A stretch of DNA of 63,477 nucleotides, filler included, from Folioceros fuciformis (Eukaryota), in assembly GCA_049999805.1 (NCBI GenBank). It is 11 parts of 11 records of this genome, joined end to end, with 100 filler letters (N's around TTAATTAATTAA, not from the genome) between each part and the next. Parts side by side here need not be neighbours in the genome. Positions count along the whole stretch, not along the records: positions 25,996 to 37,660 come from JBNGIO010001784.1; 10 more parts are not named here. One strand, written 5' to 3'. Both the position numbers and the translations under genes were made by a program. Each line of letters starts with the position of its first letter. Within the stretch, counting starts at the first letter, position 1. This document shows positions 2,013 through 51,869 of the stretch, piece after piece. The notes under the pieces were generated by a model, which saw only the letters and a program-made list of their open reading frames with translations, searched no databases and was not told the origin of the DNA.

Positions 2013-2024
2013 GCTTTGATACCA
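2013..2024 (-). promoter_or_regulatory. Primer-binding site (tRNA-iMet type) of the Copia element
   Basis: The plus strand GCTTTGATACCA reads TGGTATCAAAGC on minus, 2 nt from the CA end of the LTR. Confidence 0.85.
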
Positions 2025-2026
2025 GT

Positions 2027-18565: not shown

Positions 18566-21500
18566 GAAATCACATTGCCATATTGGTCATGTGGGCACCA
18601 GTGATGCTCGTAAGTGCAGTTCATCTTCTTATCAACAGGCCTCCCTTGGTCTTTAATTGCAGTGGATGTCTTCGTCCTTATGCCTTTATGTATCTTGAAT
18701 ACTGTACAGATATACTTCATGGACATGCAGCTTTGGTACAGTGTTTTCTCCTCGTTTGTGGGAGCCCTTGTTGGACTCTTCCGCCATATTGGAGAGGTTC
18801 GTACTCTTAGCCTGTTGGCTGAGTGACTGAAGACTTCAAACCTGATGGTTAAAAGCATAGCCTGATGCGCAGTTGATGGTATTTCTTTATTTTTGCAACA
18901 ACTCATGTGCTCATTGTCTTTGAGGTTCTGTACTTGCAGATAAGGAGCGTGGCACAACTGGGAGAACGATTTAAGTTCTTTGCACAAATTTCGCAATTTG
19001 CACTTGTGGCCGAGAACAGTGTAAACGGGTCACGGTATGGCTCCAGCGATCTCTGATTTGGGTGCCTCTTTGCGTGATTGGGGATTCTGTCCCTCATGGT
19101 TTGCAAGATGGAATCGTTAGGGAGAAGCCCTTCATGCGCACCTGGAAGGAGTTTAGCAATAATCTGACGCGTGTCAAACTTCGATATGGGCTCCCGTGGT
19201 TGAGGCTCCAGGATGGCGACCTTGAACTGGTGCATTTCCATACTTGCCATCTATGTTAGAAAGAGTGCTTCAGGTTTCTTGAAGGTTGGATGGCTTGGCG
19301 GGGTAGTTTAACTAGGCGTGGGGGTGCTGACCACAGGAACCAGGAACCCTTGTTCTAACAAGGTTCATTATAATTTGGAATAAGATTCTGTCAATCTTTA
19401 GGGAGGAGGATATCATCAGTGACAGGTGGGATACACAACTTTTATCTCTTTTACACCTGTGTTCGTTTCTTACAGCTTTCAAGAAAAGGGTGCGATCTCT
19501 GTCACTATTTGCAAAGCAAAGCAATGCACTTATCATACCAAATAGAGGGCAAAACGATGGATGCTCATCACAGTGGAGATGCAGCCTGCCTTAATGGCTT
19601 CTTTTGATGTTGTGTCTTGGTTGGTGATAGGGAATTGGAGCTTCTGGAGATGCCTTCATCAGCGTGGAATATCCGTGTTGTACAGTGGCCAGGCATCCTG
19701 TTAAATAATTCGGTTGGTCTCTCGAGCGACCTTTTTCACCTAGTATCTAAGTAGTTTGTCTGCCCGCAGTATTGAGGGGTGTCTGCTCTGCAGGTATTGG
19801 TCATTCTTGGGCTACTTGAGAAGCACATGACGAAAGGTAAAGATGGAAAGGGCATATGGAGGAAGGTCTTGCAGAACAGGTACCAGAAGGCTGCATTACT
19901 TGAGAGTTATCAATCCATCTGCCACATCCTTCGCGGGATGGTGGTGCAGGGGACTCCAGAGCATACCCTCACGAAGATGATTTTGGAGGACATTGATTTA
20001 GCAATTGAGAACAGAAACTTCTTTGAGAAGTTTGAAGTAAAACGTCTGCACACAATTCACCAGAAGGTTGTGGAACTGGTGGAGGCCCTTCTCAAATGGA
20101 AGGATGGGAAAATAGCCAAGGCTAAGGTCTGATGTGCTTGTTTGTCTGTATTGGCGGAATTGTGAAATTGCATGCCAGTTGCTTCTGACTTGATGATGCG
20201 GCCTGATGTGATTCACAGGTAGTCACAGTTGTGCAGAATCTGTTCGACACTCTTATTCGGGATTTTCCTAGAGACCGGGGTGCTTACCCTTATAACAGCG
20301 TAGGCAATGGTCATGGTAACGTGTACCCTTTGAGAGCTGGTGGGCTGCTATTTGCAGCAGACGCTTCTCTCCAATTTCCAGCCAGCGAAGACACCTCCTT
20401 TTTCAAGCAACTGAAGCGACTACATACAACTCTGACCACGAAAGAGACACTTGCGAATGTACCACAGAATCTAGAGGCCAAAAGGAGGCTCGCCTTCTTT
20501 TCCAACTCAGTATTTATGCATATGCCTCGTGCTCCTCAGGTGGTCCTTGTTTGGAATTCAATCTTGGCTCTCTTCTTTTCGTTTGATTGAATCCTTACCA
20601 TCATGAGCGGCTGGTCCGGTGGTATGTGCAGGTTGATCGGATGCTAGGTTTCAGTGTCTTGACCCCTTATTACGAGGAGGCTGTCATGTACGGGGATGCT
20701 GAGCTAGAGGAGAAGACTGAAGACGGAGTGAGTACAATGTTTTACTTGAAAAAGATTTTCCCAGGTTTGTGCATGACCCCTCGATCGGATTGCAACTCAT
20801 GTTATTGATTGACCAAGGTGGCCTGAACCGACTTTATGGACGTACTCTTCAGATGACTGGAAAAATTTCGTAGAGAGAATGAAAACCACATACAATTTTC
20901 GTTCAGAGCGAGAGATTGAATCAACTGAAAAGGGCCTGTTTGAGCGTAGGCTGTGGGCATCTTACCGAGGACAGACCTTGGCACGAACTGTGCGTGGTAT
21001 GATGTATTATAGCAAGTACGTGCCACAAACATTTTCTTCATTGGTGTGCTGCAGTACTGAAAGATTACCAACTTTTGGGTGCCCTCTGTCAAGCTGGTGG
21101 GATCACATTCTCTGTCTTGGTTGGATGGGATCACAGGGCGCTGGAACTGTTAGCTTTTATTGATTGTGCATCAGAGTTGGAACTTAATGAAGCTCGGGAA
21201 GGAGGAGATCTGCAACGGTCAGGTGGTGCTGCGGACAGCACGTCCATGGGAGAACTTAGTGAGCGTCACAGAGAGGTTCATAGTGCTGCGGAAGAATATC
21301 ATGCAATGGCAGCGATGAAGTTCACGTATGTTGCGGCCTGCCAAGTATACGGGAAGCAGAAGGCCAAGAAGGCAAAGCAAGCAACAGAAATACAGTACTT
21401 GTTGAAGACCTATGAAGGGCTGAGAGTTGCTTACGTCGATGACAAAAATGGATCCTACTCTTCGGTTCTGGTAAAATACGACCGTGCCACACAGCGTGAG

Positions 21501-23845
21501 ATGGAGATTTACCGAGTAGAATTGCCTGGTCCATTGATTCTTGGAGAAGGAAAGCCTGAAAATCAGAATCATGCTCTGATCTTCACAAGAGGTGATGCAA
21601 TACAGACTATCGACATGAACCAGGTGCGATCCCAACACCTGTCCTTTCCCTCTTTGCTCGTGATTACTGATCTAGAGTACTCACCTCATTTTCCTTGATT
21701 ATGGTTCCAGGAAAACTACTTTGAAGAGGCTTTGAAGATGCGCAACCTTTTGGAAGAATTTCACACTGTCCATGGCAGAACAGTGCCAAGGATTCTAGGA
21801 GTGAGGGAGCATGTTTTCACTGGTGCAGTGTCGTCCTTGGCGAAGTTCATGTCTGCTCAGGAGACGAGCTTTGTGACACTGGGACAGCGTGTACTTGCAA
21901 CTCCTTTGAAAGTGCGTATGCACTATGGCCACCCGGACGTCTTTGACAGACTTTGGTTTTTGACTCGAGGTGGCATCAGCAAGGCTTCCAAAACGATCAA
22001 TATCAGTGAGGATATATTTGCCGGGTTTAACTGCACTGAACGTGGTGGAAATGTTACTCACCAGGAGTACATTCAGGTAAGTCTCGTAGTGTGCCCAGGC
22101 AGCAAACAGTTCCTGTGGCTTCATTAGTTGGTTGGTTGATTGGTTGGTTGGTTGGGTGACTCCTTGAGCTAATCGGACGAGTCATCTGTGACGATTGAGA
22201 CTTTTGTTGCCTCTGCTCTTGCAGGTTGGGAAAGGCCGGGATGTTGGATTAAACCAAATCTCCATGTTTGAGGGTAAAGTAGCGGGTGGAAACGGGGAAC
22301 AGGTTTTGAGCAGGGATGTTTACCGACTTGGGCACCATTTAGACTTCTTTCGGATGCTGTCATTCTATTACACAACAGTAGGGTTCTTTGTGAGCAACAT
22401 GACTGTGGTTCTCTGCGTCTATGCCTTTCTTTGGGGTCGAGTGTATTTGGCTTTAAGTGGAGTAGAATCGTCCATTGCGCATCTTGATAATAAGGCCATC
22501 TCCGCGTCCTTGAATCAACAGTTTCTGGTCCAATTGGGTATTTTCACAGCTCTCCCTATGGTTGTGGAGAACACCTTAGAAATGGGATTTGGGCAGGCTG
22601 CATGGCAGTTTGTTCTTATGCAGCTGCAGTTGTCATCCGTATTCTTCACGTTCTCTATGGGAACGAGGGCTCACTACTTTGGACGCACGATACTGCATGG
22701 AGGGGCCAAAGTAAGCTCCTAGAAGCCTACCCTTGTAGCATTTTCATGTGGTGAAGCCCCTGTTCGTGCGGTGCTAATGTATGCGGCATGTCTCATGCGC
22801 AGTATCGTGCCACTGGGCGAGGCTTTGTCGTCACTCACGAGAAGTTCGCTGAAAATTACCGTCTCTACTCTCGGAGTCATTTCGTGAAGGGGCTAGAGCT
22901 TGTTCTGCTTCTCGTTGTATACGAGTGTTTTGGGGTAAACAGTAGCTCGGTCGTATACATCCTGATAACAATTTCTAGCTGGTTCTTGGCATTGACATGG
23001 TTAATGGCTCCATTTGTGTTCAACCCCTCGGGATTTGATTGGCTGAAGACAGTGGAGGATTGGGAGGATTTCGGTCAGTGGATAATCTTCCGCGAGGTTG
23101 GATTTACTGACGCTAAGGTGAGCTGGGAAAGGTGGTGGGATGAGGAACAAGCCCATCTGAAGGACACTGGGCTTGTAGGCAAGGCAGTGGAAATTCTGCT
23201 CAACTGTCGGTTTTTCTTCTTCCAGTGGGGAGTTTGTTTCCGCCTCAATATCGCAGGTGGAAGGAAGGGTATAGGTGTGTACCTGATTTCTTGGGTCTAC
23301 CTGATTGTTGTAGCCGTATTAATAGGCATGTTCAACGTGTTGCGGGACAAGTATGGTGCCACACGGCATAGCTTGTACAGGCTGATCCAGCTGTTATACG
23401 CCGTGGGTGTGATATTGATCTTCGTTTTGTTGTCGACCTTGACAAACTTTGAGTTCGTTGATGTCTTCATTAGTTTTCTAGCTTTCGTTCCAACTGGATG
23501 GGCTCTCCTTCAAATAGCCCAGGTGGGTTGTTGATTGCTCTTGTTGGTGCTGTTTTTCGATTGCGGTGAGGTGTGCCCACTGGTATTAACAAGCGGTGCA
23601 CGCAGGTACTGAGACATCCGTTACTGGGAAGGAATACGAAAGTGTGGGGAATCGTAGTGGCGGTTGCGCGCCTGTATGAGTACGGAATGGGGGTGTTGGT
23701 CATGGTGCCGGTAGCAAGTCTATCGTGGCTCCCTGGCTTTCAGAACATGCAAACCCGAATAATGTTCAACGAAGCTTTCAGTAGGGGCCTGCACATCACG
23801 CAGATTCTGAGAGGGAAGAGCCCTAATTCCAACTTCACCTCCTAA
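18566..23845 (+). CDS. CalS: Callose synthase (1,3-beta-glucan synthase), GSL1/GSL5 (CalS11/12)-like; 5' part missing at the contig edge; about 14 GT-AG introns
   Basis: Exons encode WAPVML|IYFMDMQLWY, FREEDIISDR, EAKRRLAFFSNS, FSVLTPYY, LWASYRGQTLARTVRGMMYY, GEGKPENQNH, DMNQ, HYGHPDVFDR, SEDIFAG, VGKGRDVG and QTRIMFNEAFSRGL. TAA at 23843-23845. Confidence 0.96.
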
Positions 23846-26722
23846 CGTGTATTTAGCAGTGATAGGGTACAATGTAATCTTGCACCAGATAGCTGTGTTA
23901 CTCCTACAGTGAGACAATATTTGTCATACAGGCATTGGCAAACTGCCAGTATAAAATTGTTGAGCCGAAGATCACATATCTTATGCATTTGATCGTATGG
24001 AGTCTGTGCTGTCTGCAAGCGCATGTGAGGGAAGGAGAAACCACGTTGCAGGCCTTCCCTCTGCATGTGTTGCATGCTTGTCAGGCACCAACTCCCCACC
24101 GACTGGTATTGCGTAATAGTCCGGGTGAGTTCATAAGGCCAACCGTGAAGGGGTGGTGTACCCTTACACGCACGGTTACCCGGCGCAAGGCATTGAGAAA
24201 GAGGAGAGAAATTGGAAGGTATGTTGTCACCAAACCAAACCAAAGCTGAGTTGTCCAGCATGGACGGACGAGCGACTGGAGCTGGCCCCCGGCCGCGTGG
24301 TAGCTGAATGACTGCACAAGTGCGGCAAGGCAAAGGATGTAGGCACCGCGGCGGATGTGAGACGCCGACAAGCTAGGACACGTCCAAGGTAGAGTAGTGT
24401 AGTGGGAATTGGTGGGGGCGTGGGCAAATGGGCATGGCCGCATGGCGTATCCGTCCCTCCCTCGTCGCCGCGGAATGGATGGCCAAGTTTCCGCGTTTCC
24501 AGCACATGTTCACACGCGCAGCGCAGCCTTGACTCCGGACCTCTGGCTCCAACAGGATTCTCATTGGCTTGTCACCCGTCCGCCAGACCAGCCCGCTTCC
24601 TTCTCTGTACACACTGTTGTACTTTACTTTGAATCAGATCTCAATGCTGCTCCCTTTCCTTTTCTGTTGCCCTCCACCTGATAGGCCCAGCCCAGCCCAC
24701 CCGAGCCCAGTCCAGCCCAGGGCTCCTGCTCCTCTCCGGTTCCCGTCAGAGGCCCAACCTCCTGGCTGCCTCCGGATCTTATCGGGCTTCATACCTTCAT
24801 ACACACTATGCTCATGTCATGCTAGAGTATGCCTACATGTATACATACGCTGGCAGAGGCCGGAGGCAGGATATTCCAAGAGGAAAGAGTGTGTGATGAG
24901 GAGACCGGAGCAGCTTAACTAACAAGCGGATCCCCAGTCATAACAGCAGGCAACGGCAGGGGTGCAATAATGGTAAAAAGAAGGGCATCTCTGCGTGCTG
25001 CATCATGGCTTGCAATACCACGGCGTGCAGTGCAGTGCACCTCCATCCATCCTGGCTCCAGGCTGCCACACCGACGGCCACCCTTTCTTTTCCACTAGTC
25101 TAGCCCTGCCTCGCCTCGCCATCCTGCAAAAGCGGTGGCACTTCGGATGTGCACTGGACTGGACTGGACTGCATACCTACTTGTAACATGGGCGTGATGA
25201 GATTGGGCGTGAAGTTTGAAAGCATGGCCTGCCCTGCCCTGCCCCTCGATGTGATGCCCTGCATGCAAAGCATGTATGCACATGAACAGGCATCAACAGT
25301 ATCCACGACGTTACCCACCACAACGCAATGCAGTACAATCCAATCCAACACTCTTCACCCTTCCCGGAGCGAGAAACGCTAGATCCTGCACTAGCGTTAC
25401 TACCACTCTTGCATGTGCAGCTGAGTAATATCGGATAATACGGTCGCCTGTAGCATCTCTATCCACCATGTGGCGAAGGCGGAGCTTGATACCAGTGATT
25501 GTAGAGCACGCGCATAGTTAGGGCCTTGGCCTCCAAACGTAAACGCATTGGAGCATTGTAAGATAAGCGACGCTTTCTGGCAGCATCCGGAAAAGATGCG
25601 TCCAACCAGCCGACATCCCAGGCGGTAGCCAAAAACAGGGGCTGGAGAGGTAAATCGGAGGAGATGGCGAACGTGGGACCCGATGGGAATTGGAATTGGA
25701 ATTGGAATTGTTGTGCTGTGCTTTGTGCCCGGCCGCGGGCCAACGTAACCCTCCTTTTTTTTTTCCTTTTTCTTCTCTTCGTTTTCTTTTCTTTTCTTGC
25801 CTGGCTTTGCTCCTGGAGTCCCTACCGAATGAATCGAAATAGCGGAGTCAGAACCAGAGAAACCAGCCTGCCCTCCCTTTAAAGCTACATAGGTGNNNNN
25901 NNNNNNNNNNNNNNNNNNNNNNNNNNNNNNNNNNNNNNNTTAATTAATTAANNNNNNNNNNNNNNNNNNNNNNNNNNNNNNNNNNNNNNNNNNNNGAATG
26001 GAGGAGGAAGTGAGGGGGATGGGGGCGGCCGCAACCCCTGCCTCTAGCCCTAGGTAGGGAACGGCCTCTATGACCGTTTAGGCCAGGCAGGCAATCAGCT
26101 AGCCTGACGTCAGACCTTGACCCCTAACACTGACATACCCCGCATATTCCCGTTCCTATGTTCAGACCATTATTTTATTATTTTATATTATTCTGCTATT
26201 ATTTAATTATTTAATATTATATATCTTTAATTAATATTAAACTAATCACTAGACCTAGACTCAGACTTTCCCAACTCTATAGCCCAGTACCAGACTTAAA
26301 TTTTCCCAGGTCTGGGACCAGACCTGTACCCACTCTAATAACCAAACCAACTATTTCCTAGTCAATTAACCTAATAAGCACAAAGAAAAATAGGAAAAAT
26401 AACCAGAAAATAAAGAAAAATTAGGGAAAAGAAGTAGAAAAAGAAAACCAAACCATACCACTATTAACCCTTTTTCAACCAAAACAAACTACTACCCCAA
26501 ACTTTGGATGTTCACAGATTCTGACCCATAAGGCTCTTCGACAGCAGTTGCCGAATTCTCACCTTCTAAAACTAGAAGTGGATTCTGACCTCTAAGACAG
26601 ACAGCATAATTGACCCAATCAAAACTAAGTGCTATCTATTATCTTCTCTCAACACCCTACAAAAGTGGATTGGTCAGCTTCTAAAACCAAAAGCCTATTT
26701 CAGCTCATCAATCCACTCTTTA

Positions 26723-28781
26723 TCAATTGCCTATGTTCCACCTCACCGTCTTTTTCTTCTTATACACAACTTCCTCCAAACCAACATATCGTTTCAGTCT
26801 ATTTGTGCCCTCATTCTCAGCAAAAGTTTCCAACACTTGTTTCCGCTGAGGTTGTTCGTTTGCCTGTGCCACTAATTGTCTCACCTTTTGTTGAGTTTGC
26901 TCCATAATGGAGGCTATCCCAAAAGATAAATGTGAATGCTCAAATGCGGTATCACATACTTCAGCACATGCCGTTTTAATAAAATCCAACCGTTTTTCTT
27001 TTGTCATCTCCAATTCTGTCTTACATATTGGTGCCACCAAGGGGTTACTAGGCAAGATGATGTGTGGAGCTTCTTCATCCTGCATCCAAAAAGCCATAGC
27101 TAAGTTGTTGGTATCACTACTTTCAGCAACATACGCTCCATTTGTTTTTCCATTTTGCCTAGCTGCTGCTGCACCATCCTTGTATATGCCAAGGAGTTGT
27201 TGAACTTTCACTATATGCTTGCAGATGAAACCTTTGTTCCCCACTGGACATGAGCATGTAGCCCAAGGAGAGTAAACATGTTCAATCACATACCACAAGT
27301 TAGGGATAATTGAGCTGATAGAAATAGTTTCTGCACCTTTCATAGCGGTTTGCTCCAAAGCCTCCAGCTTCTTGTTATGCCTGTATCCCCCTTCTTTCGT
27401 GAAGTGTTGGTACTAATAATGTCGGGCAACCACATTCACTAATTGGTGTAGTAACCAATCTAGTCTACGGCCAGGCAAACTTGACTTGCTAAATGCTGCA
27501 CGTTCTTTTATAAATCTATGGAATCCTTTCAAAACTGAAGTTGTATGTTGCCTTGCATGAGGCAACATTCTAGCATTACACAACCACATATCTATAGTCT
27601 CTCCCCATTGGACCTTCATATATCTCACAAAGTCTTCTTCACTTGTTTCCCACTTGTCACAAAAATTGTGTAGCATACTTCTTCCTATGGAAACATACTA
27701 TGAAGATGTGCTTGCCCTTGTGACATACATAATATCCCCTAGCTCTACCCATATTGAAATTCGATTACTTTGAGAGTGCACTTTCTTCAATAAATTCCGT
27801 CTCCACGCTTTTCGCACATGCCACAAACATAATAATATAGGCATATTATGATTCCACACTGAGCGAATAGCAGAAATCTCTGCTTGACAATCATCAACAA
27901 GGAATAAACTAAGCGCCCAATCCTTGTTGATCTTTTCAACCTTCTTCCGTAAAGCTGAAAGCCACCTGACAAGTGACTCAGTAGTAGCATCTTTTGTAAT
28001 AGCCCATGCTACTGGAACACCGTTCAAGTAATGGTCAAAACCCATCACAGTGAATAAGTGGTAGCGATACTTGTTCAATCCTAAAGTTGCATCCATAGCT
28101 AGCACATTACCATTCCCATAAAGCAAAATGCAATTTAACATAAAAGGAGTTTGAATGCCCAAAGCGAAAGGTTAATTCTCGCTTGATTGGTGGAAGACTA
28201 TAGACGCATTTTGCTCCAACCACAGGGACACTGATGTGGCATGATCCAGGCCTAGCTTCTATTCACTAACTTCAACTTGTGTAAGTATATTGAGAACATC
28301 ATATCTTTGCACATGATCATCTCTTACTAGCTCATATACCTTTGTCTGATTGTTGATTCGGGCCGTAAGAACACCAATACCTGCAAGCTAGCCACACAAT
28401 GTTAATGCCTCCCTAAGTAATAAAACAATTTGCATACTTCAAACCTTCTTACCTAACATATAATGCAGTTGTATGCACTGTCAATACTGCATGGCGAGGT
28501 AAACTCCCCGGCCCCTTAGAATCCTTCTTGTAGAAGTTCGTAGGATGGGAACTTATAGCACTCATTCCCCCAATAAAGTCTCCCACACTAGAAAAGAGTA
28601 TATAAGCCACCTTCACATGTTTTTGCTGCCCTGGTGTCCTAGAATGGTCATATTGAGAAGAAACCCAGTTTAGGTCAGTATGGTTAAATAACCCTAATTG
28701 AGGAACGTGCACCACAAAAGGTGTGTTAGTTGGTAACTCTTCTAAGTTAATACAAGAACTCAAATCCATATTATTATCCAT
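26723..28781 (-). mobile_element. Mutator-like (MULE) transposase with SWIM finger, disrupted
   Basis: AMDATLGLNKYRYHLFTVMGFD...GVPVAWAI, FLVDDCQAE, LLCLWHV and SWIM CSCPVGNKGFICKH, split over several ORFs. Confidence 0.88.
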
Positions 28782-29474
28782 AAATCACATTTCCCTATCC
28801 CAAAGAGAAAAAACCCTAACCCTAATCTCAACTTTTAACCAAAATCCCTATCCCTAATCATAAGAGTGCTTGAAAGCAAAGATTAAATATGCCGCTCTAA
28901 ACTCACATCTCACGCTATGCAAATGACGGGAGTTCACATACCATAAGCTGGTGAGCCAGGGTGGTGCACTTGGGAGCCTTAAACAAGTATTATTAGTAAC
29001 GTGTAAGCGGGTAGGGACGAGCAGCTTTCTCATGTCCCGTGTTGCTGGTATGTAGTGCACTGGTGTCAAAACTTTTGGCCACCAATTCGAATTATGCATG
29101 ACTCACCATTAGCATGGTGATGGGCAAGGACATACAGAGATACATGTCGTGGCCGTGGATGGCCGTGCGGACACACGTGCTGGCCTTATGGCCATCGGGT
29201 ATCCATTTGCAAGCTGTTGGTCTGGGGCATGTACTTAGCAAGCGTAATAGTTGCTCCTATACCACATTGCTGGTCTAGGGCATGTTCTTAGCAGCGTAGT
29301 AGTTGCTCCAATGCCACGTCATGCCATGCTGTGCTGCAGAGGGCATTGGCATGCTTAGCGTCCCCCCCAAATATAGGGCCTACAGGACTAGACTATTTGG
29401 CCTTGAAAAAGGTCGCCATTTGCAACCTGGCGTATGGAGGATGTTGGTATGCCGATGCCCTCTGCCCGGAAGCG

Positions 29475-29857
29475 CTGGAAGTAGCGGATGGGCGGCCTCT
29501 TGCGTACTATACCATTCAGAAGGAGGCAACTCGACATCTTGTGTCGCGTTTGAGGGGAGGAATGTAAATTTTTGTGAAGAATCTGACTGGCAAAACATTT
29601 TAGTTCAAGTGAGAGCTCGGATACCATTGATAAGTGTTAAAGCAGAACTCATGACAAGCAAGGTCTTCCTCTTGACCGGCAGGGCCTTATCGTTGCTGGC
29701 GAAGGGTTGGAAGATCGTCGCAACCTCGCAGATTACAACATGCAGAATGGTTGCTCTTGCAATAGAGGGCGGTGATAGAATCGACATTTTCACAACCAAC
29801 ATTCAGGACAAAGGGGGCATTCCACCTGACCAGCAATGTCTGGTAAGCCGCTGGTAG
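29475..29857 (+). pseudogene. UBQ: Decayed polyubiquitin (parts of three head-to-tail units)
   Basis: DGRPLAYYTIQKEATRHLVSRLRGG runs directly into M*IFVKNLTGKT (ATG 29562, TAA 29565), then GLEDRRNLADYNMQ and IQDKGGIPPDQQCL, with frameshifts. Confidence 0.9.
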
Positions 29858-30272
29858 TACTCTGTCAGGTTACAATCCGTATGTAGCCACAAGGAATCTT
29901 CTTTTCATCTTTTCTTGACTTCGAGAGGTAGTTTCTGGAGTGGAGGAGGAGGTTAGCCCTGAAAATGACCTCCACATAGTGAATTAGCTTGATGGATGTG
30001 AAAGTGGCCTGTTGATGGGCTGCAATACTTTTCGAGCAAGAACCACACCGATATTTCACTGGTGTAGAAGATCTCCTGAGCGCTCAGTCTCAGGTATATC
30101 GCTCATTTCTGGCTTAAGGAAAGTAACAAGAACCTTGCACCAGAGATAAGTAGCTCAGCCTCCTGCAGTAGAGGTTCCGGTGCATGGAACAGTCAAAACA
30201 GAAAAAAGTCATTTCCTCCGCTTACATCCTTAGGCACTGGCTATTAGTCCAATATTCGAGCATCCATTATTC

Positions 30273-32657
30273 TCAAGGCCGACCTTTACAACTACAACAA
30301 CCGGATGCGAATCGATGCACACGGTAACCATCCCTCACAACAATGTTTCTCTGTTCAAGCCTTGACATGATCTCCGTGGAACTGTGGCAATCAATGCACA
30401 TCCGCAGGTTCTTTGTTACCACCATAGGTGTCCCAATCGGAGTGTTTAAGAGACCAAATGCCAGAGCTAGCTTTTCAGCATGCCCACAAAGCGCATCCTC
30501 CTTTTCCTTCTCACACAGTGGCTTCAACACCAACTTTGTGCGAGGTACGTGGCCTCCTTCCTGCTTCAGACGGGCATTTATGCTATCTACCTTGAACACA
30601 ATATCCTCCCTTCTTTCTCCCACCACAAATCTATGTATCTCCTTTTTCACCTCGATGGTTGCCACTGCAGGTTTCTTGTTAGCTCCTGCTGCCCGTCTCT
30701 GCGTTTCAATCCTGTCTACATCGGTCCACCTACCTGCATCTGCGTATGCATTGGCCATAAGCACGTATGGGGGCGCCTGCAGGGGGTCCAGCCGGACAAT
30801 GTTTTCAAAACACCACGTCGCCCTCTCTAGATCCCCATAACTTTTGCATGAATTCAGCAAAGACATCAACCCCACGACATCACTTTGCCCCTCACATGAC
30901 AACAGCATCTTCTCAGCCTCAAGTAACTGACCCGCACGCCCAAGAAGATCAATCATACACGTGTAATGCTCAATTGTAGGTTTGATGCCATGCTGTTCAC
31001 CCATGGAATTGAAGTACTTGCGACCCTCGTGGACCAGTCCCTCATGACTACATGCGACTAAGAGACAAGTAAAAGTAGCACCATCAGGCTGAATACCAGC
31101 AACTAACATCTCCTCAAAGCAAGCTAGCGCCTTGTGCCCTTCATCAGAAATACCATACCCAGAGATCAGGGCAGTCCATGTCACCACGTCCTTTGTGGCC
31201 ATGCTGTCAAACACCTGGCGTGCAGTTTCAAGTTCACCACATTTTGCATACATTTCCACCAGGCAGTTGCCCACCAATACACTATTCAGCAGTCCGCTTC
31301 CCACAATCTTTGAGTGCAACTGCCTGCCCTTCTGTAAAGCACCGGTGCTTCCACAGGCTTTCAGAAGGCAGGCAAAAGTAACATGGTCAGCCAAAATGAG
31401 GCCCTCCTTCTCCATTTGTCCGTACAGAACAAGTGCCTCCTGTCCAAGATCTTGCTGTGCATATGCTGCAATCAGCGTTGTCCATGTGACCACATCCTTT
31501 GTGATCATGCTGTCAAAAACCCGACGTGCATCTTCAAGTTGGCCAAATTTTGCATACCCAGCAATCAAGGCATTCCATGTCACCACATCCTTTGTCTTCA
31601 TGCTGTCAAAAACCTGCCGCGCATCTTTCAGTTCGCCACATTTTGCGTACATGTCAACTAGGCAGGTGCCAAGGAACAAGTTAACAGGAATGCCACTACG
31701 CAGTACATCACAATGCACCTTTCTGCCAGACTCCAAGTCTGTGGCCAATGCACACGCTTGAAGGGCAGCTAGAAAGACATGCGCATCTGCCTTCACCTCT
31801 GATATACGCATCTCATGGTACAATCGTATGGCCTCAGTAGGTTTTCCATGCTTAGCATATGCAGAGATTATGGAAAACCACATGAAGACATTTGGTCTGC
31901 CCACTCTGGTGAACACATCCATGGCCTCCTGCAGACTACCCCCGCATGCATACATGCGCAAGATATGATTCCCCAAGTACGCATCCGACTCGTACCCGAA
32001 TTTGACAGTGAGGTCATGAACTCGTCGCCCCACAACCAGATCCTTCTTAGCTGTACACAACTTAAGCACAGTGTAAAACAGAGATTGAGAAATAGCAGAG
32101 TGTGCCAGCGCCAGGGATTCCAAGGCTTCAACGGCCTCATAAAGCTTGCCCTGCTGACATAACATGCTCACGGTTACAGCCGTAACGAGGCCCATTTCCG
32201 ATCCAGCATTCCTGCCAGCTTCAGGCTTGCCTGAAAAGCTATACCCGGAAGGAGAGGGGGCATGACCCATCTGCACATCCAAGGAAACCAGCTGCTCATC
32301 AACCCAAGACGGCTTGAGCGTGCTATTCAACCACAGCACCTCGCCGGACCCCTTACGCCGGAAGTCAGGCGAACGGGAGCTATACTTATCTCGTCTGTTG
32401 TCCCACCACATGGTAGGATCCAAAAAAAATTGTTCCCACAAGTGTTCCTGCTCCTGGCGACGACCATCGCAGGTCAAAACGTCCACACCCACACATTTTC
32501 TCAAAAGTGGAAATGCTGAGCTCTTCAAACTGTTGCACCTGGAGGCTTGGTGGATTGCAGGGATTTGACTCCCAGAAGTGAGATGAGCAGGAGCCCCTCC
32601 AAGAATCCCTGAACAAGCACCAATTCTTTGGGTCCACAGTAATCCCCGCCGACGCAT
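30273..32657 (-). CDS. PLS-class PPR protein with N-terminal OSB-type PDF motif and C-terminal E1-E2-DYW:KP (GRP-type) domain; putative organellar U-to-C RNA editing factor
   Basis: Intact intronless ORF, open to 33029, with the likely start MRRRGLL at 32657. It contains WEQFFLDPTMWWDNRRDK...SPDFRRK...LWL, about 13 P/L/S repeats, KKPAVATIEV, HAEKLA, RMCIDCH and the C-terminus CCSCKGRP*. Confidence 0.95.
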   Translation of the reverse strand: MRRRGLLWTQRIGACSGILGGAPAHLTSGSQIPAIHQASRCNSLKSSAFPLLRKCVGVDVLTCDGRRQEQEHLWEQFFLDPTMWWDNRRDKYSSRSPDFRRKGSGEVLWLNSTLKPSWVDEQLVSLDVQMGHAPSPSGYSFSGKPEAGRNAGSEMGLVTAVTVSMLCQQGKLYEAVEALESLALAHSAISQSLFYTVLKLCTAKKDLVVGRRVHDLTVKFGYESDAYLGNHILRMYACGGSLQEAMDVFTRVGRPNVFMWFSIISAYAKHGKPTEAIRLYHEMRISEVKADAHVFLAALQACALATDLESGRKVHCDVLRSGIPVNLFLGTCLVDMYAKCGELKDARQVFDSMKTKDVVTWNALIAGYAKFGQLEDARRVFDSMITKDVVTWTTLIAAYAQQDLGQEALVLYGQMEKEGLILADHVTFACLLKACGSTGALQKGRQLHSKIVGSGLLNSVLVGNCLVEMYAKCGELETARQVFDSMATKDVVTWTALISGYGISDEGHKALACFEEMLVAGIQPDGATFTCLLVACSHEGLVHEGRKYFNSMGEQHGIKPTIEHYTCMIDLLGRAGQLLEAEKMLLSCEGQSDVVGLMSLLNSCKSYGDLERATWCFENIVRLDPLQAPPYVLMANAYADAGRWTDVDRIETQRRAAGANKKPAVATIEVKKEIHRFVVGERREDIVFKVDSINARLKQEGGHVPRTKLVLKPLCEKEKEDALCGHAEKLALAFGLLNTPIGTPMVVTKNLRMCIDCHSSTEIMSRLEQRNIVVRDGYRVHRFASGCCSCKGRP

Positions 32658-33497
32658 CCCCTGGGCCTGGAGCGACGCCTGGAACAGCGTAGGGCAACTG
32701 CCAGTGCTATGTGGAAACGGGATGCGAACATAGATGTACATATCATGGGTATCATCCTCCTTGTCGTCAGGGTATGATGTACTTTCTGTTGGGAAAGATG
32801 GGAAAGAAGAAGTACTTCTTTCTTTCCCATCTTTATAAATAATGCGAGCTCCATTCGTGAATCGTGAGAATGGTACAGAACAGGATATGTACGAAGGACA
32901 CATTTTAGTCAATTGTTCATATTTGTGCGCAGGCAGCGTCAAGTCATTGGATCTCAAAAACGTGCTGCCGCTGTTCGTAAGCTGCACCCGTTTCGCCACA
33001 TCTGATCCAATTATCCCAGGTCTCCACATTATTCGTGATGGGGATATTCCAGGTGCGGCTTATGACTCACTACTAGTCTTACATTAGTTTTTCCTGGGTA
33101 TCTATGAGTGTCTTGGCTTTTGATTCCTCATTTTCCTATTTCCTCTTTGGGAAACGAACCAAACCGGACCCTCCACCAAAGGGGACACACAATTTGGAAG
33201 AGACAAGAAGGGGAGGAAACACCGCCTAGCCGTTCTCTTTCTAGTTCCTCACTTCCACATCAACACTGCAATCTCGCATGAAAGCTTTCATGTCTACTTT
33301 CTATGGTTGGGGACAACATCTAATTGGAATATGCTTTACGGTTTGGGTTAGAGGCAACGCTCATATTAGGATATGCCTTGTTATCTATGAATCCTTTGTT
33401 TCCGTTACCAACTAATGTTGTGAGAGTGCAAATCTGGGGGCCCAAATGAGACAAGTAGGAAGAACATAGGCAAACTGGATCACAAGGTGATTGTGGT

Positions 33498-34655
33498 TTT
33501 TTTTATCGTGAAGAAAAGAATTTTGATTAATATTGTCATCCTCTTACAATACTAACGGGACCCCTGCCTATGTATTTACATAGCATGAGTACCATGATCG
33601 GGAGAAAAAAACCGACCTCGTGTCCAGCCCTCTGGACAGGACGCGGAAAATGCTCCCCATCACCTGATATTAGCGGACTACTAAGACCATCTAGACGTAA
33701 ACCTCAAATTCACCTGAGGGCCATGGGGGCTCACCTTCCCCAAGGGCATGCATGATTCCAGTGATTGTCATTCCCAATAACTAGGAAGACCGCCGACCTC
33801 CATTCACTCCGCTTGAACTGTTTTCGATGAGACTGCCTCAAACTTTTCGCCGCAATTAGTAAATGCTCCCAAATGCACCATAGTAGAGCCTTAGATGAGG
33901 CTGGCTCATTACCTCCATAGACCACGGTAGACCAGTTGACCCAAAGATGAAAAAGGCACGAAGACCATAGTAAACCCCACCATTGCGACTGAAGTAGAGC
34001 TTTGCCCTAGGTTGCATCCAACCCAAATAGGGTAGTTTGCTTCGTGATCCTGAGGCTGGTATCAGGGAGAATCCTTTGCAACCAACTACCCACCTCATTC
34101 CATATCTCTTGGGCAAAACTACAATGGAAGATCGTGTGTTGGCTTTTGTTTGGGGCACCATAGGTACACAGTCAATACTGGTCTTCTCCCGTAGCAACCA
34201 ACAACCCATCCCGACGATCCGTGTTAGGCAAACAAGCTTTAAAAAGCACCAAACCGTCGCCCTAAACCTTGGGAGGAATTCCTACTGACTTCCAAAGCAA
34301 CTTGATAGCTTTTCTTTGTTGCCGCACAGATAGCTATAACCTGGGAGCCATTGATTGCCGTTGCTTGAGTTTCTACGCTCGTACCATCCAAAGGAAGATG
34401 TCCGTTGTTGGAAAGTTGAAAAAAGACCGAAGGTTTACTGCCTTGCACCTTGGCCTCCTGGGCCATTTGTAGAGATTTGGTCTTAAGGTCAAATCCCAAT
34501 TTTTCGCAAGCCGAAACCAACATTGTATGGCTGACTTGTCCGAGGTTTGTGGCCCACTAGAACGTTCGACTTGAGTGCACCACCGCCCTGCGCGAACAAA
34601 CTTAGAGAGAACCGTGTGTTGAAATAGCACCACAGGCCTAGAAGGACTCCACAAT
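33498..34655 (-). mobile_element. Degenerate LINE 3' end (zf-RVT-like region) with short A-tail
   Basis: Minus-strand translation with stops gives LLWKSVGIPPKV, QHTIFHCSFAQEIW and CLFHLW. A T-run at ~33498-33505 matches a poly(A) remnant. Confidence 0.6.
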
Positions 34656-34659
34656 TCCT

Positions 34660-37529
34660 TACTTATGGTGCACAGGATGCTACATATATAGCCTTCAGGC
34701 GGGGCAACCCTCGATAAGGTAAGCCTTAGTCTCGAGGGTGCAATATCCTAGTATATCCTGATATATCCTGATAACACTTAGGTAATAGATAACTACGAGT
34801 TCAATATGGGATAATCTACACTATCCTAAGTGTTGTATGCTCTTAATAACAATTCAGTTAGAGCTTGATTTCTAACACTCCCCCTCAAGCTCAGACTATT
34901 TGTAACACTTCAAGTAGTTCACGAAAGTGTAAGAACTTATCTCTACCTAGCGACTTAGTAAAGATATCTGCTACCTGGTCTTCGGTCTTCACGTGTCGAA
35001 GATCTATCTTCTCAGATAATACCGCTTCCCTGATGAAATGATAATGTACTTCTATGTGCTTCAAACGAGCATGAAACACAGGATTAGTAGCCAACCTCAT
35101 GCTACTCATGTTGTCACAGTAGATTGTAACCTTGCTGTTCACTATATTTCCAAGATCATGTAGCAACTTCTGCAACCAAGCTGCTTCACAGGCTACCATT
35201 GCAGCTCCTCGATACTCTGCTTCTGTGCTTAACAAAGCAACTGTCGGTTGTTTCTTGCTTTGCCAGCTGATCATACTACTTTCCAGACTGAATGCATATC
35301 CACTGGTTGATCTTCTGTCATACTCACAACCAGCCCAATCAGCATCTGTATATCCTGTCAGTTCAAGATGCTTCCTATGCTCATAGAGCAATCCAAACTC
35401 AGTAGTTCCTTTCACATATCTCATGATTCTTCTAACTGCATCCAAGTGCGGTTTCCTTGGGTTCCGCATGAATTGACTAATCAGTCCCACTGCATAACTT
35501 AAGTCAGGACGTGTGATAGTCAAGTAGATCAAACTTCCGACCATCTGTCGATACATAGTCACATTTTACAGCTCAGCTCCTACATCCATTTGTAGCTTGA
35601 CATCATTCTGCTCCAATGGTGTATCCATCGCTTTGCAATCTGCCATGCCATACTTCTGCAACATATCCTTAGCATATTGTTTTTGGAATAGCCAGATTCC
35701 TTGAGGTGTAGACACCACCTCAATTTCTAAGAAGTATCTAAGTTCACCAAGATCCTTCACCTTGAACTCTTTTGCAGATTCGCCTTGACATCTGCAATAC
35801 CATCTACATCATCTCCTGTGATGATCAGGTCGTCAACATAAACGACAAGACACACTTGTCCTACCTTGGTCTGTTTTACAAACAGACTGTGATCTGCGTC
35901 TCCAATCACAAACCCTCGCTCCTTCAAATAGCTTGTGATACGAGCATTCCATGCTCTAGGTGCCTGTTTGAGTCCATACAATGCCTTCTTCAGTTTGCAG
36001 ACGTATGTTGGAAACTTAGGATGAACATAGCCTTCAGGCTGTTCCATGTACACTTCCTCCTGCAACTCACCATTCAAGAAGGCATTCTTGACATCCATTT
36101 GCCATAACTTCCATCCTTTAGCTGCTGCTAATGCTAGGTCTGTCCTTACAGTTGTCATCTTGGCTACTGGACTAAAGGTTTCCTCATAATCAAGACCATA
36201 TTGTTGTCCATATCCCTTTGCAACCAACCTGGCCTTGTAACGCTCCAACGTTCCATCTGACTTGAACTTCAGCTTGTACACCCGCTTAGAACCAATAGGA
36301 ACCTTGCCATCAGGCAATTGAACCAAATCCCACGTTCCGTTCTCAACTAATGCTGAGTATTCTTCATCCATGGCTTGACACCACTTATCATTTGTCAACG
36401 CCTCAGCAAGCTTGGTTGTCCCCTAACAAGCTGTGACCCTTGTCATATACGCATAATGTTGGGCATTGTATCTTGTATAGGTGTACCTGTCAATGGGTTT
36501 CCTAACCCTCTCAGAGCTCCTTGGTCTTGGTTCATTTTAAACCTACCTTGCATATTGTTGCTCCTTAGCACCTGGCGTTTCCACAGACAGAATGCCAAAC
36601 TCACTGTCAATGCTCTCACTACTTGAGGATTCATATCCCTCATTTCCAGTTTTGCTGTTTTCTACTCTCCCCCTCACTGACATATCCGGGTCAGTGGTCT
36701 TCGTTTTACCATTCTGCAGTCTTCCAGACCATGGATTCACCGTTGGTGATCCACCATTGGTCACATCCTCACTCTTTGCTGGAGTACTCTTAACAGTACT
36801 CTCCCCTATGGGTTCGTCATAGGGTAGTGCAACTGAGTTGCTATACCAGGAGGCTAACTCATCAAATACCACATCCCTGCTTATCAGGATCTCATGTGTG
36901 GATGACACATAACACTTATATGCCTTCCTATTTCATGCATACCCCAGAAAAACACTCTTCACTGCTTTAGGATCCAGCTTCCTACGCTTCTCATCAGGTA
37001 CATGCACATATGCAATGCACCCAAACACTTTCAAGTGCCTAATATCTGGCTTATAGCCATACAGTTTCTTAATTGGTGTAGCATCATGAATTCCTGCCGT
37101 AGGAGTTCGATTTAGTACGTACACTGCTGTCATCACTACTTCTGCCCAATAATCATTAGGTAAGCACTTCTCATTCAGCATTGCCCTTGCTGTTTCCATG
37201 ACTACCCTGTTCTTCCTCTCTACAACACCATTCTGCTGTGGTGTGTATCTGCAAGTCAGCTGTCTTCGTATACCATGATCTGCAAGATACCTATCAAACT
37301 CATTTGAGACATATTCTCCCCATCCGTCTGATCTTAGACAAGAGATGGAGCAGCTGAATTCATTTTCAGCATGCTTTTTGAAGTCCTTGAAAGACTCGAA
37401 CACTTCATCCTTATGCTTCAGTATGTACAGCCACGTGTACCTGCTGAAATCATCAATGAAGGAGACATAGTAGTGGGCTCCTCCAAACGATGCATTCTGT
37501 GAAGGACCCCATACATCAGAGTGTATCAA
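34660..37529 (-). mobile_element. Ty1/Copia retrotransposon 3' half (integrase, RT, RNase H, PPT, partial 3' LTR)
   Basis: IHSDVWGP...ERKNR (integrase), YKARLVAKG, MDVKNAFL and VYVDD (RT), YTDADWAG...KHIEVHYHF (RNase H). PPT GAGGGGGAG at 34878-34886 is followed by TGTTAGA at 34877. Only a few frameshifts. Confidence 0.96.
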
Positions 37530-37782
37530 TTGGACAAGGAGGGGGAATGAGCGAGTGCCTCCTTGGCCCTCGGGTCATTGAGAACATTAAGGACCAGGTC
37601 TGTAGGTAGGTGAGTGGGGTATGTCCTTGGCCTTTGGTGGTCCGGGACCCCTTAGGTCTCNNNNNNNNNNNNNNNNNNNNNNNNNNNNNNNNNNNNNNNN
37701 NNNNTTAATTAATTAANNNNNNNNNNNNNNNNNNNNNNNNNNNNNNNNNNNNNNNNNNNNGGGTGGGAGTGAGAGTGTCGGG

Positions 37783-41871: not shown

Positions 41872-42400
41872 GTCAAACTTCAAATCTCTCTCGAACGTCC
41901 CAGGTCAGACTTGATTTTGGGGCTCCACCCACCACACAGACGAATGTGCAGATATCCCAGACCTAGCTAATTCCCCGTCCTAGCTTCTCTTCCACAATGC
42001 AGCCATACGCGCCACACACTCTCGTAGTAGCCCTGCAAAGCCCGAATCCAAGTTCCGGAGAGGAAATACAGAAAGAATTGTGAAGATGGAATCGTCCTCC
42101 CGGCATTTGATGAGATGCGGATGCCTTGCCTCTTCTGCAAGCACCAAGTGGCAAGAACACGTTGTCAAATTATCTTACACCACAGAACAATTAACATCGT
42201 CCGCCCCAAATAACGGAACGGCCACTGGTCCTCAGCACATTGGATTGGATAATGCATCCCAAGCCCTAATGCCAAAACTACGAATCTTCTGGAACGACTG
42301 GTCCGATGATGTGCCTCAGGCAATTCGCGGCAACGGATTATAGCTGCCTTTTCAATATTGGCATTCTTGCTTATCGTTTTGCCGGTTTGTGGCCAGAGAA

Positions 42401-42889
42401 ATGGTGATGGCTGTGGCTATGGTTCCAACTGCAGGCTCGGCGTTTGTGACTGAAGCAACGTCTTGCGTCACAGCTCTGCAGGCCAAGGGAGCGTCGTCTG
42501 TGGCATTGTTCCGGTCCTGCTCAGGGTTTGGTGGAGATTCTTTGAGGCAGAGAAAATGTGTCATCGCAAGGCGACAGCCGAGGATGCCTGTAAAAGCGCT
42601 TGTCAAACAGGTTGATGTTTCCAAGGTTGTTCCGCAAGGGGAGAGAGTGCTGGTCCGGCTAGAAGAGGTTCCTGAGAAGAGCGCGGGAGGCGTATTGCTG
42701 CCGAAATCGGCTGCCAAGTTCGAGCGGTATTTGGTCGGCCAAGTTTTGGCGGTAGGGAGTGAGGTTTCGGCGATAGAGAAGGGCCAGAAGGTTGTGTTTT
42801 CGGATTTGAATGCTTACGAGGTGAATCTCGGAAGCTCCGGCAAGTTGTGCTTTTGCAAAGCAACAGACTTGCTGGCTGTGGTAGAGTGA
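42401..42889 (+). CDS. CPN10: Plastid 10-kDa co-chaperonin (GroES family) with transit peptide; coding region intronless
   Basis: Ser/Ala/Arg-rich N-terminus, then VVPQGERVLVRLEEVPEKSAGGVLLPKSAAKFERYLVGQVLAVG. Confidence 0.93.
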   Translation: MVMAVAMVPTAGSAFVTEATSCVTALQAKGASSVALFRSCSGFGGDSLRQRKCVIARRQPRMPVKALVKQVDVSKVVPQGERVLVRLEEVPEKSAGGVLLPKSAAKFERYLVGQVLAVGSEVSAIEKGQKVVFSDLNAYEVNLGSSGKLCFCKATDLLAVVE

Positions 42890-49344: not shown

Positions 49345-50910
49345 TGGAACTGCCAGGTTCATGGCCTCCTTCCTGCTTCACACGTGCTTTCATGCACTCC
49401 ACCTGAAGAGCAACATCCTCCCTCCTTTCTCCCACAACGAATCTATGCACTTCCTTATTCACCTCAATGGTTGCCACTGCAGGTTTCTTGATGGCTCCCG
49501 TTATCCTTCTCTGCGTTTCAATCCTGTAAGCGTCGGTCCACCTACCTGCATCTGCGTAGGCATTGGCCATGAGCACATATGCAGGTGCCTCCAGGGGGAC
49601 CAGCTTGACAATGTTTTCAAAACACCATCGCCCTCTCTATGTCCCCATGACTCTTGCAGGCATTCAGCAAGGTCCTCAAGCCCACAACATTACCTTGGCC
49701 CTCGCATGACAAAAGCATCTCCTTTATTTCGTCTAAATGGCCTGCACGACCAAGAAGACCAACCATACAGGCGCAATGCTCAATAGTGGGTTTGACGCCA
49801 TGCTCTGTGGCCATGGAATCAAGGAATTTGCGACCCTCGTGGACCAGTCCCTCATGGCTGCAAGCGAGTAGAAGGCAGGTACATGTAGTAGCATCAGGTT
49901 GAACACCGGCAATCTAACATGTCCTTGAAAGAAGCTAGTGCTCTGCGAGCATCACCACAAGTAACATATCCAGAACTGAGGGCAACCCAAGTAACAACAT
50001 CCTTCGTGGCCATGCCGTCAAATACTGGCATGCAAGTTCCAATTCACCGCATTTTGCATACATGTCGACTGGGCAGGTGCCCACTGGTAGGTCACCCAGC
50101 AGTCCCCTTTTAACGATCTGTGAGTGCAGATCTTTCCCCTTTCGTAAGGCACCAGTGCTTTCACAGGCGTTCAGAAGGCAAGCAAAAATAAAATGGCTAG
50201 CCAAGCTCAGCCCCTCCTGCTCCATTTGTGCATGCCGAACAAGCGCCTCATGCCCAAGCCCTTGCTCAGCATAGCCGGCCATCAGCACCGTCCATGTTAC
50301 AACATTCTTTGCGGGCGCCAACAAACAAGTACACAGGAAAGCCACTGCGCAACACATCACAGTGCACCTTTCAGCCGGATTCCAAGCCGGCCGCAAATGC
50401 ACAAGCTTGCAGGGCGGCTACAAAGACGTGAGCATCCCCACTCCCTCCTGCCCTACGCAACTCACGGTACAGTCGAATGCCCTCCCCCGGTTTCCCATGT
50501 TTTGCATAAGATGAGACGACGAACCCCCACACGATAACATCCTGTCTGCCCACCTTGGCGAACACATCCACGCATCTCGTGGTACAGCTGTATGGCCTCC
50601 TAAGGCTTCCCATGTTTAGCAAGTGCAGAGATGATTGAACTCCAGGTGACAACATCTGGGCCGGCTACTCTGGTGAACACATCCATGGCCTCCCCCCCCC
50701 CACAACCTCCACTTGCGTACATCCTCAAGACATGGTTCCCCAAGTACGCATTCGAGTGGGACCCCAACGGGAGTTCAACGCTGAGGTCATGCACTCGTCG
50801 CCCAGCCACCAGATCCATCTTCACTGTACACAGTTCCAGCACAGTGCAAAGCCTCTAGACACACAGGAACAACAGACTCCGTGTGCTCCAGAGCTTCCAG
50901 GGCTCTAACA
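49345..50910 (-). pseudogene. Frameshifted, truncated PLS-PPR DYW:KP pseudogene, paralogue of 30273-32657
   Basis: Collinear fragments GRRVHDLSV, DMYAKCGEL, HGVKPTIEH, MANAYADAGRWTD and KKPAVATIEVNKEVHRFVVGERRED...EGGHEP. Homology stops before HAE/CxxC. Confidence 0.9.
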
Positions 50911-51869
50911 GACATGGTCGTAAGAAGATCCATGCATACCTGCAACATTTCTCCTTAAATTTGTCTGTCAAAATTTGATCATCATCCTGCCAGTCTCCGC
51001 AACTCCTTGCTTACTTCTCGCAAGAAAGAGAAAATGAGTTGCTTTTTGGCAAGGTATCCGAGGAGGACAACCTGTTATGCTTTCATCATAGGCTCAGTTA
51101 CTCCTTGTTACTGTACTCTGTTTACTATTTAGGGTCGTCTTAATGGGATCATTAATGGCATACAATTAATGATGCCGTGCCCGAAGGCAGACCGTGCACC
51201 CTAAACCCCCATGGCGCAGACAACAATAACGCAGAACAAAATTAAATAAATTATTTCAAAAAACACCTTTTTTCCCCCTTATTCTAATGTATCTTCATCT
51301 GATTGTTTTTCTCTAAATNNNNNNNNNNNNNNNNNNNNNNNNNNNNNNNNNNNNNNNNNNNNTTAATTAATTAANNNNNNNNNNNNNNNNNNNNNNNNNN
51401 NNNNNNNNNNNNNNNNNNACGGCGCAGGGCGTAAGGGTTGAGCAGGCACAAGGGAGTGGAAGACCTCCAAGGCGCGAGCGGTGGAGAGAGCTGGGCGAAC
51501 AAAGGAAGAGCCAGAGCGTGACCAGGACGGAAGAGTTCCGAGCCCGAGCGTGAGGGGAGGGGGACAAGCAGGATGAGGTCGCGGCCTGAACTGATTCCCG
51601 GAGCAGCAGCCTCTGGACAGGAGGGGGGACCTCCTGTCCCCCAAATCGACCTACTTTTGTGGCCCAATATGGAGCACTGGAGGTTCAGGGCAAGAAAGTT
51701 GGTGGCAGAGCGGGGTCTGACTTTTATGAGAACTACTGAGAAGTATAGGACGATAATGCGTAGAATCTAAATATAATAGATATATTAGATTATGCACATT
51801 GTGGCTTCCTGTACTCCTTAATAGTGACTTCTTTCATGAAAAATAATGCAACCAAAAATTATCAAAGAA

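Follow-up and report, generated by a model that had tools for sequence, protein, structure and literature searches.

An intact pentatricopeptide repeat gene with a GRP-type DYW:KP domain in Folioceros fuciformis, encoding a probable U-to-C RNA editing factor

The gene described here is found in a 63,477-nucleotide stretch of DNA from Folioceros fuciformis (NCBI GenBank assembly GCA_049999805.1). The whole stretch, referred to below as the window, consists of parts of 11 records that are joined end to end and need not be neighbours in the genome. The gene lies in the part derived from JBNGIO010001784.1 (positions 25,996 to 37,660) and occupies 30273..33029 on the minus strand, where the longest open frame encodes 918 amino acids plus a stop codon, with no intron needed to read it. 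The predicted product is a pentatricopeptide repeat (PPR) protein of the PLS class that comprises a single N-terminal PDF-like motif, 13 PPR motifs, the PPR-like motifs E1 and E2, and a DYW:KP deaminase-fold domain that ends in Gly-Arg-Pro (GRP). An intact GRP-type DYW:KP domain, which the initial annotation of this locus had proposed, is supported by every sequence feature tested, by phylogeny and by predicted fold, all of which agree. The gene itself appears to be nuclear and intronless, and its product is predicted to be targeted to an organelle.

A Pfam scan of the 918-residue frame detects DYW_deaminase at residues 826-916 (E 8.4e-31; 106 bits against a cut-off of 24 bits), E_motif at residues 731-793 (E 3.5e-14), and five PPR-type families, including PPR, PPR_2 and PPR_1, with E values from 1e-59 to 1e-29. 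Because the DYW_deaminase match and the strong PPR and E-motif matches share one frame, the observation of a DYW:KP protein is far beyond chance. The stop codon is at 30273-30275, and the range first assigned to the domain, 30273-30690, comprises this codon, the 133-residue domain and the final five residues of E2. Two open reading frames (ORFs) on the plus strand, 30343-30840 and 30480-30830, run across the domain and were rejected as antisense artefacts of the PPR frame.

Translation more likely starts at Met125, an in-frame ATG at 32655..32657 on the minus strand, than at the first codon of the long frame. The PDF-like motif begins at residue 58 in the related protein P0004, at residue 80 in P0012 and at residue 46 in P0011, and with a start at Met125 it would begin at about residue 66, near these positions. 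Directly after Met125 is a stretch rich in Arg and Ser, which would then be the predicted transit peptide.

The PPR array is located at 30879..32192 on the minus strand (residues 280-717), and its motifs are arranged as P-L-S-P-L-S-SS-P-L-S-P2-L2-S2. The array was delimited from Pfam PPR matches and from a motif parse of residues 280-918, made manually and checked by script rather than based on PPRfinder. E1 (residues 718-751) and E2 (residues 752-785) follow at 30675..30878 on the same strand, as indicated by the Pfam E_motif match and the parse. The parsed lengths of the array, E1, E2 and the 133-residue domain end exactly at residue 918. Both Pfam and the parse therefore recover the architecture of PLS-class editing factors, in which a P/L/S array ending in P2-L2-S2 is followed by E1, E2 and a DYW-type domain.

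In the PPR code, the pair T/D specifies G, N/D specifies U, and N/N specifies a pyrimidine. Decoding was applied to position 5 and the last position of P and S motifs, leaving the two P motifs with the pairs A/S and F/D and all L motifs undecoded. The predicted target would be 5'-Y(-14) n n G(-11) U(-10) G(-9) n U(-7) G(-6) n G(-4) n n n U(0).

The DYW:KP domain comprises residues 786-918 (30276..30674, minus strand) and is numbered from the second Lys of KKPA, which is K1. The initial annotation had recognized it by a KKPAVATIEV sequence replacing the PG box, a short segment after FVVG, a zinc site reading HAEKLA...RMCIDCH, and a CCSCKGRP end instead of DYW; each of these can be read in the minus-strand translation, in which CCSCKGRP is followed directly by the stop. 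The KP box (K786-P787, domain K1 P2) occurs within KKPAVATIEV at the site of the PG box, which reads K.PG.SWIE in PG-type domains. In a phmmer alignment with 9kfx, a synthetic PPR-DYW protein solved with RNA, the short segment appears as a 4-residue gap exactly at the s-h-p-q residues of 9kfx. One residue is regained later, giving a domain of 133 residues, versus 136 in the PG type, with the xHP residues absent. These are published traits of DYW:KP domains, which are defined by the KP box (PMC11332814, PMC9478123) and are 132-133 residues long without the xHP of the 136-residue PG domain (PMC9478123, PMC11845758).

The zinc signature of the domain reads CGHAEKLA...NLRMCIDCH, and the features that follow are all on the minus strand. 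His850-Ala851-Glu852 (30474..30482; domain H65 A66 E67) combines a putative ligand of the first zinc, the Ala typical of KP domains and the putative catalytic Glu; H98 and E100 of alignment A1 are invariant. An Ala or Cys in place of the Ser after His is the KP variant of the published HxE(x)nCxxC signature (PMC11845758). Cys878-x-x-Cys881-His882 (30384..30398; domain C93, C96, H97) would supply two further ligands of the first zinc and one of the second, whose remaining ligands would be His905, Cys912 and Cys914 (30288..30317; domain H120, C127, C129). The predicted active-site lysine is Lys873 (30411..30413; domain Lys88), which is invariant as K121 of alignment A1.

These roles are assigned by homology, and the corresponding residues of the OTP86 crystal structure are H892/E894, C920, C923, H924, H947, C954 and C956 (PMC7611903). 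By this comparison, H65, C93 and C96 are predicted to bind the catalytic zinc, E67 to act as proton shuttle and K88 to be the DYW-specific active-site lysine, and H97, H120, C127 and C129 are predicted to bind a structural zinc. Each of these positions is invariant across 46 aligned KP and PG proteins, and all 18 invariant columns of that alignment are kept in the 918-residue protein. Lys88 is invariant in 46 of the 46 rows and is thus non-discriminating, being kept in PG domains too. Met877 (domain M92) stands in NLRMC where PG domains have Val95, and is a weak discriminator, as Met also occurs in some proteins that have HSE in place of HAE.

An AlphaFold2 model of the last 166 residues has a mean predicted local distance difference test (pLDDT) score of 94.6 and a predicted template modelling (pTM) score of 0.86. 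Its best Foldseek match in the PDB is 9kfx (E 9.5e-19, TMq 0.84), followed by the DYW domain of OTP86 in both of its states (7o4e, E 2.8e-10, and 7o4f) and by DYW1 (7w86, E 1.4e-09). Bacterial cytidine-deaminase toxins come next, at about 1e-4. A sequence search recovers the same three solved proteins, that is, 9kfx, the OTP86 DYW domain and DYW1. Because the model matches solved DYW domains, the claim of a deaminase fold holds: the model has a cytidine-deaminase fold with the DYW-specific gating insertion and a second zinc site, the zinc being predicted from the ligand residues.

Sequence comparison was made in a table of the 918-residue protein and its 120 best database matches. The pattern HxE...CxxCH is present in 119 of these 121 proteins, which fall into two types. 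Thirty-nine, among them the 918-residue protein, have HAE, HCE or HVE, a KP-like box, NLRMC and ends other than DYW, and the other 80 have HSE, a PG box and DYW-like ends. A GRP end is found in five proteins: the one described here, P0002, P0004, P0005 and P0012. In the protein described here it consists of G131, R132 and P133 (30276..30284, minus strand), which replace Asp-Tyr-Trp.

The hornwort DYW:KP proteins have been divided into a DRH and a GRP subgroup (Gerke et al. 2020, cited in PMC9478123); this accords with the initial annotation, in which the GRP end was taken as a hornwort trait. The C-terminal Asp forms a hydrogen bond with a conserved Lys, and in GRP proteins the Asp is lost and the Lys is changed to Glu (PMC9478123). 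The position four residues after CxxCH holds Glu, Gln, Thr, Glu and Glu in the five GRP proteins, and Lys in 10 of 10 DRH and 2 of 2 DRP proteins. Glu886 of the 918-residue protein stands at this position, that is, where the Lys partner of the missing Asp would be. Since the terminal Gly and Glu886 match the published description, the protein has the coupled Asp-Lys loss of the GRP type. We read the Lys replaced by Glu886 as "K103" of PMC9478123, where a count from the C-terminus gives 104.

The type of the domain was also examined in a maximum-likelihood tree (IQ-TREE, LG+C20+F+G4) of 60 domains, comprising 39 of the 39 KP-like proteins and 21 of the 80 HSE proteins, the latter hand-picked for spread. 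The rows are database matches typed by their own sequences. KP and PG domains are separated with support of 99/86, and the 918-residue protein is on the KP side, within a GRP clade of five (100/97) that is nested in DRH/GRP clades of 17 (97/81) and 20 (99/97). The phylogeny thus places the domain with KP rather than PG, and, together with the published assignment of GRP and DRH proteins to hornworts, it makes a hornwort origin of the window probable. Named fern KP proteins, from Ceratopteris and Adiantum, are outside the DRH/GRP clade. One HSE protein with a KP-like box (P0096, WKKAG.AYIE) is placed on the KP side, and it is possibly an intermediate between the PG and KP types. The nearest relative of the domain is 71% identical over 138 columns. 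A search of the ESM Atlas with residues 730-918 returned only generic Streptophyta clusters of DYW and E-motif proteins.

The PDF-like motif is present as a single copy at 32244..32462 on the minus strand (73 residues, 190-262) and is probably of a type that is repeated in organellar single-stranded DNA-binding (OSB) proteins. Its core of about 60 residues reads W..FF.DP..WWDNR..K.....PDF+.K.....LW......P.WV, in which 16 of 16 aligned rows share W, P, WWD, R, K, PDF, P and W. A word-index search with the 73-residue motif gave no match. At E<=1e-3, an exhaustive search with phmmer retrieved 595 representative proteins (169 at E<=1e-10), many of them with 2-13 copies. Thirty of 150 listed motif matches were scanned with Pfam. 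Three of them carry an SSB domain with copies of the motif after it, and eight are PPR proteins in which the motif is N-terminal. Of the others, one is a kinesin and 18 match no family convincingly, two of these having only scattered and mostly sub-threshold Pfam matches. There is no Pfam model for the PDF-like motif. An AlphaFold model of the motif (pLDDT 90.4) consists of a helix, short strands and a helix, and a Foldseek search of the PDB with this model gave 0 matches at E<=0.001 (7 at E<=10).

OSB proteins are described as an OB fold followed by PDF motifs of about 50 residues with a conserved Pro-Asp-Phe (PMC6963530). The motif found here belongs to the same repeat family as the copies located after the SSB/OB-fold domain in 3 of the 30 proteins scanned. 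Those three proteins have the OSB architecture, and the motif found here may be of the OSB type. Unlike OSB proteins, the PPR protein has a single copy at its N-terminus and no OB fold. Among the 119 tabulated proteins, the motif is found in 4 of the 39 KP-like proteins (3 of the 5 with a GRP end) and in 1 of the 80 HSE proteins. The motif is therefore not specific to KP.

DYW:KP domains are confined to hornworts, lycophytes and ferns according to PMC9478123, so the initial annotation was right to associate them with lineages that have U-to-C editing. It had also stated that designer DYW:KP proteins perform this reaction, and published experiments bear this out: the GRP-based designers KP2 and KP3 gave about 26% and 22% U-to-C editing in Escherichia coli, with C-to-U at 0% (PMC9478123). 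Designers KP4, KP5 and KP7 were inactive (PMC9478123), and U-to-C conversion has been demonstrated only with KP2, KP3 and KP6 (PMC9478123, PMC11845758). Lys88 is essential for U-to-C editing in designer KP proteins, and its replacement causes a switch to C-to-U (PMC11845758). Single substitutions can flip the direction of editing (PMC11845758, PMC11332814), and designer KP proteins stall as RNA-protein crosslinks in bacteria (same sources). A Schiff-base model has been proposed for the U-to-C reaction (PMC11332814).

The 918-residue protein is probably an organelle-targeted PLS-class PPR factor whose GRP-type DYW:KP domain most likely edits U to C. We infer its organelle targeting, RNA target, expression and U-to-C direction in vivo from the features described above. 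The protein would enter the organelle and bind one single-stranded transcript through its 13 PPR motifs and E1/E2, with one PPR motif per nucleotide and S2 opposite nucleotide -4. The DYW:KP domain would act on the pyrimidine at position 0, most likely converting U to C. Catalysis would involve a zinc held by His850, Cys878 and Cys881, together with Glu852 and Lys873, and the second zinc would be structural.

Several observations weigh against this interpretation. KP1, a designer based on the DRH subgroup, gave 0% editing in either direction in E. coli (PMC9478123), and the fern-based designer KP6 is capable of C-to-U editing in human cells and in vitro (PMC11845758), so a KP domain is no guarantee of U-to-C activity. 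As of February 2025, none of the natural KP proteins had yet been assayed (PMC11845758). The target prediction is based on only 7 of the 13 motifs. Residues 1-124 of the long frame resemble no known protein that was found, and these first 124 codons may be noncoding. The closest database proteins are 55-66% identical over the last 279 residues, and, with domain identity at most 71%, no orthologue able to show purifying selection was found among the database matches. Finally, the gene is surrounded by transposon fragments, and a dead paralogue is located 19 kb away along the window.

The paralogue (49355..50845, minus strand) was identified by tblastn and from ORF pieces, with Pfam PPR matches on 49938-50417. 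It matches residues 320-829 in four pieces, in frames -3, -1, -2 and -3, with 55-75% identity. About residues 456-510 are missing, as is the catalytic core (residues 830-918, HAE...CxxC...GRP); the KP box is retained, and the sequence breaks off inside the domain. Judged by its sequence, this copy is a pseudogene. The tblastn search of the window for a second intact copy shows only this frameshifted one.

Given such a neighbour, perhaps the 918-residue gene is intact yet non-functional, a recent duplicate that is unexpressed or redundant and heading for the pseudogene state. The frameshifted and truncated paralogue, the MULE/SWIM, copia and gypsy fragments in the flanks, and the failure to find an orthologue above 71% domain identity would all fit this explanation. 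So would the size and quick turnover of the PPR family, which has 1,583-2,308 genes in each of four hornwort genomes (PMC13386178). However, the 918 codons of the gene are uninterrupted, whereas the paralogue is broken by three or more frame shifts within about 1.5 kb, and the protein retains all 18 invariant columns, every zinc ligand, Glu67 and Lys88. Nor is its terminal branch in the tree long, at 0.32 where the median is 0.25. A non-functional duplicate is therefore quite unlikely.

Alternately, the protein might be an active factor that edits C to U, or in both directions, rather than a dedicated U-to-C editor. It shares its fold, zinc site and catalytic Glu with C-to-U DYW:PG enzymes, and both the C-to-U activity of KP6 and the flips caused by single substitutions would fit this alternative. 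Yet the GRP-based designers KP2 and KP3 produced only U-to-C editing in E. coli, and C-to-U became dominant in a designer only after replacement of Lys88, which is present here. The protein also has HAE for HSE and lacks both the PG box and the DYW end, leaving this alternative distinctly improbable. It is very improbable that the protein binds RNA through its PPR array without catalysis, as a stabilizer or as a specificity partner of another deaminase; the inactivity of designers KP1, KP4, KP5 and KP7 and the extra N-terminal motif of a nucleic-acid-binding type are compatible with such a role, but a non-catalytic domain would not be expected to keep every one of its catalytic and zinc-binding residues.

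With the GRP hornwort subgroup and the designers KP2 and KP3 the 918-residue protein shares the KP box, a 133-residue domain without xHP, HAE, Lys88, NLRMC, the GRP end and the change of Lys to Glu, and with the natural GRP-ending proteins it also shares P2-L2-S2-E1-E2 after a PLS array and a common clade. Unlike KP2 and KP3, with which it was compared by their published description, it occurs in nature and has an array of 13 motifs of its own, along with the PDF-like motif at its N-terminus. The DRH subgroup, on which KP1 was modelled, has the same KP box, HAE, Lys88 and domain length and is sister or paraphyletic to the GRP proteins in the tree, but it keeps the C-terminal Asp and its Lys partner where the 918-residue protein has Gly and Glu.

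More distant systems differ in more ways. The DYW:PG C-to-U factors (OTP86, DYW1 and 9kfx) have the deaminase fold with gating insertion, two zinc sites, the Glu, the Lys and the PLS-E1-E2 arrangement in common with the protein described here. In contrast, the latter has KP for PG, is three residues shorter in the domain, has HAE for HSE and Met for Val before CxxC, and lacks the DYW end. Fern and lycophyte DYW:KP proteins (Ceratopteris richardii KP509_18G024700, Adiantum, and the clades that served as templates for KP4-KP6) likewise have a KP-type box, HAE or HCE, NLRMC and non-DYW ends. They are only 42-47% identical to the 918-residue protein over its last 279 residues, however, and have boxes of the form WK.P/WKK. 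and the ends CEI, FDC and FEY.

The window contains further coding sequences and mobile-element remnants. A DNA-transposon remnant with MULE transposase and SWIM zinc-finger ORF fragments is found at 26726-28171 (minus strand), about 2 kb downstream of the PPR stop codon. Retrotransposon fragments are located at 1065-3730 (minus), 7754-8479 (plus), 35760-37574 (minus) and 53673-55570 (plus), and include a Pol beta-barrel with zinc knuckle, RVT_1, copia-type RVT_2 with integrase, and gypsy-type gag with aspartyl protease. A callose synthase, nearest to the callose synthase 12 type, is represented at 21003-23531 (plus) by exons in three ORF pieces that match Pfam Glucan_synthase. The exon at 22192-22719 (plus) is 75-81% identical to its counterparts in nearly all of the listed land plants (ferns, mosses, a liverwort, a lycophyte and angiosperms), with three rows at 61-71%; the best match, at 81%, is a transcriptome protein, and no one lineage is distinctly closer than the rest. 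A Cpn10 co-chaperonin ORF (42344-42886, plus) and a legume-lectin-domain ORF (5911-6759, minus), the latter possibly part of a lectin receptor kinase, are ordinary plant genes. A short run of N at about 51370-51420, seen as X in translated ORFs, is taken as an assembly gap. The G+C content is 0.41-0.59 per 3 kb, mostly about 0.48, which is compatible with the value of about 0.5 published for reads of Anthoceros angustus (PMC7027989) and is a weak sign of a hornwort source.

The PDF-like motif on editing factors is the only element of the gene for which we could not find a match in the searched literature. The literature search for a connection between PDF motifs and PPR editing factors found none, and the one review that contains both terms treats PPR only in relation to RNA polymerases. 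It is conceivable, if unlikely, that the OSB-type N-terminal motif of some seedless-plant PPR editing factors serves as a second module for binding single-stranded nucleic acid. On this equally tentative view, the motif could aid in holding or releasing the RNA while the U-to-C reaction, which is prone to crosslinking, takes place. If this is true, natural GRP proteins could finish catalytic turnover where designer KP proteins fail in bacteria.

The gene is a well-preserved but ordinary member of a large and described family. It is one of very many, since hornwort genomes contain PPR genes in the numbers given above. Its catalytic domain shows no departure from the published pattern of GRP proteins, which were described in 2020, and the use in programmable editing that the initial annotation had envisaged has already been realized with GRP-derived designers. 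It is useful as a clean annotation, as indirect evidence for the hornwort origin of the window, and as an example of an editing factor that bears a PDF-like motif. Among pyrimidine transitions, only U-to-C lacks a characterized natural enzyme, and GRP is the only hornwort subgroup with working designers. Because only consensus-designed KP proteins have been assayed so far, an intact natural GRP protein such as this one would be a sensible choice for initial biochemical work.

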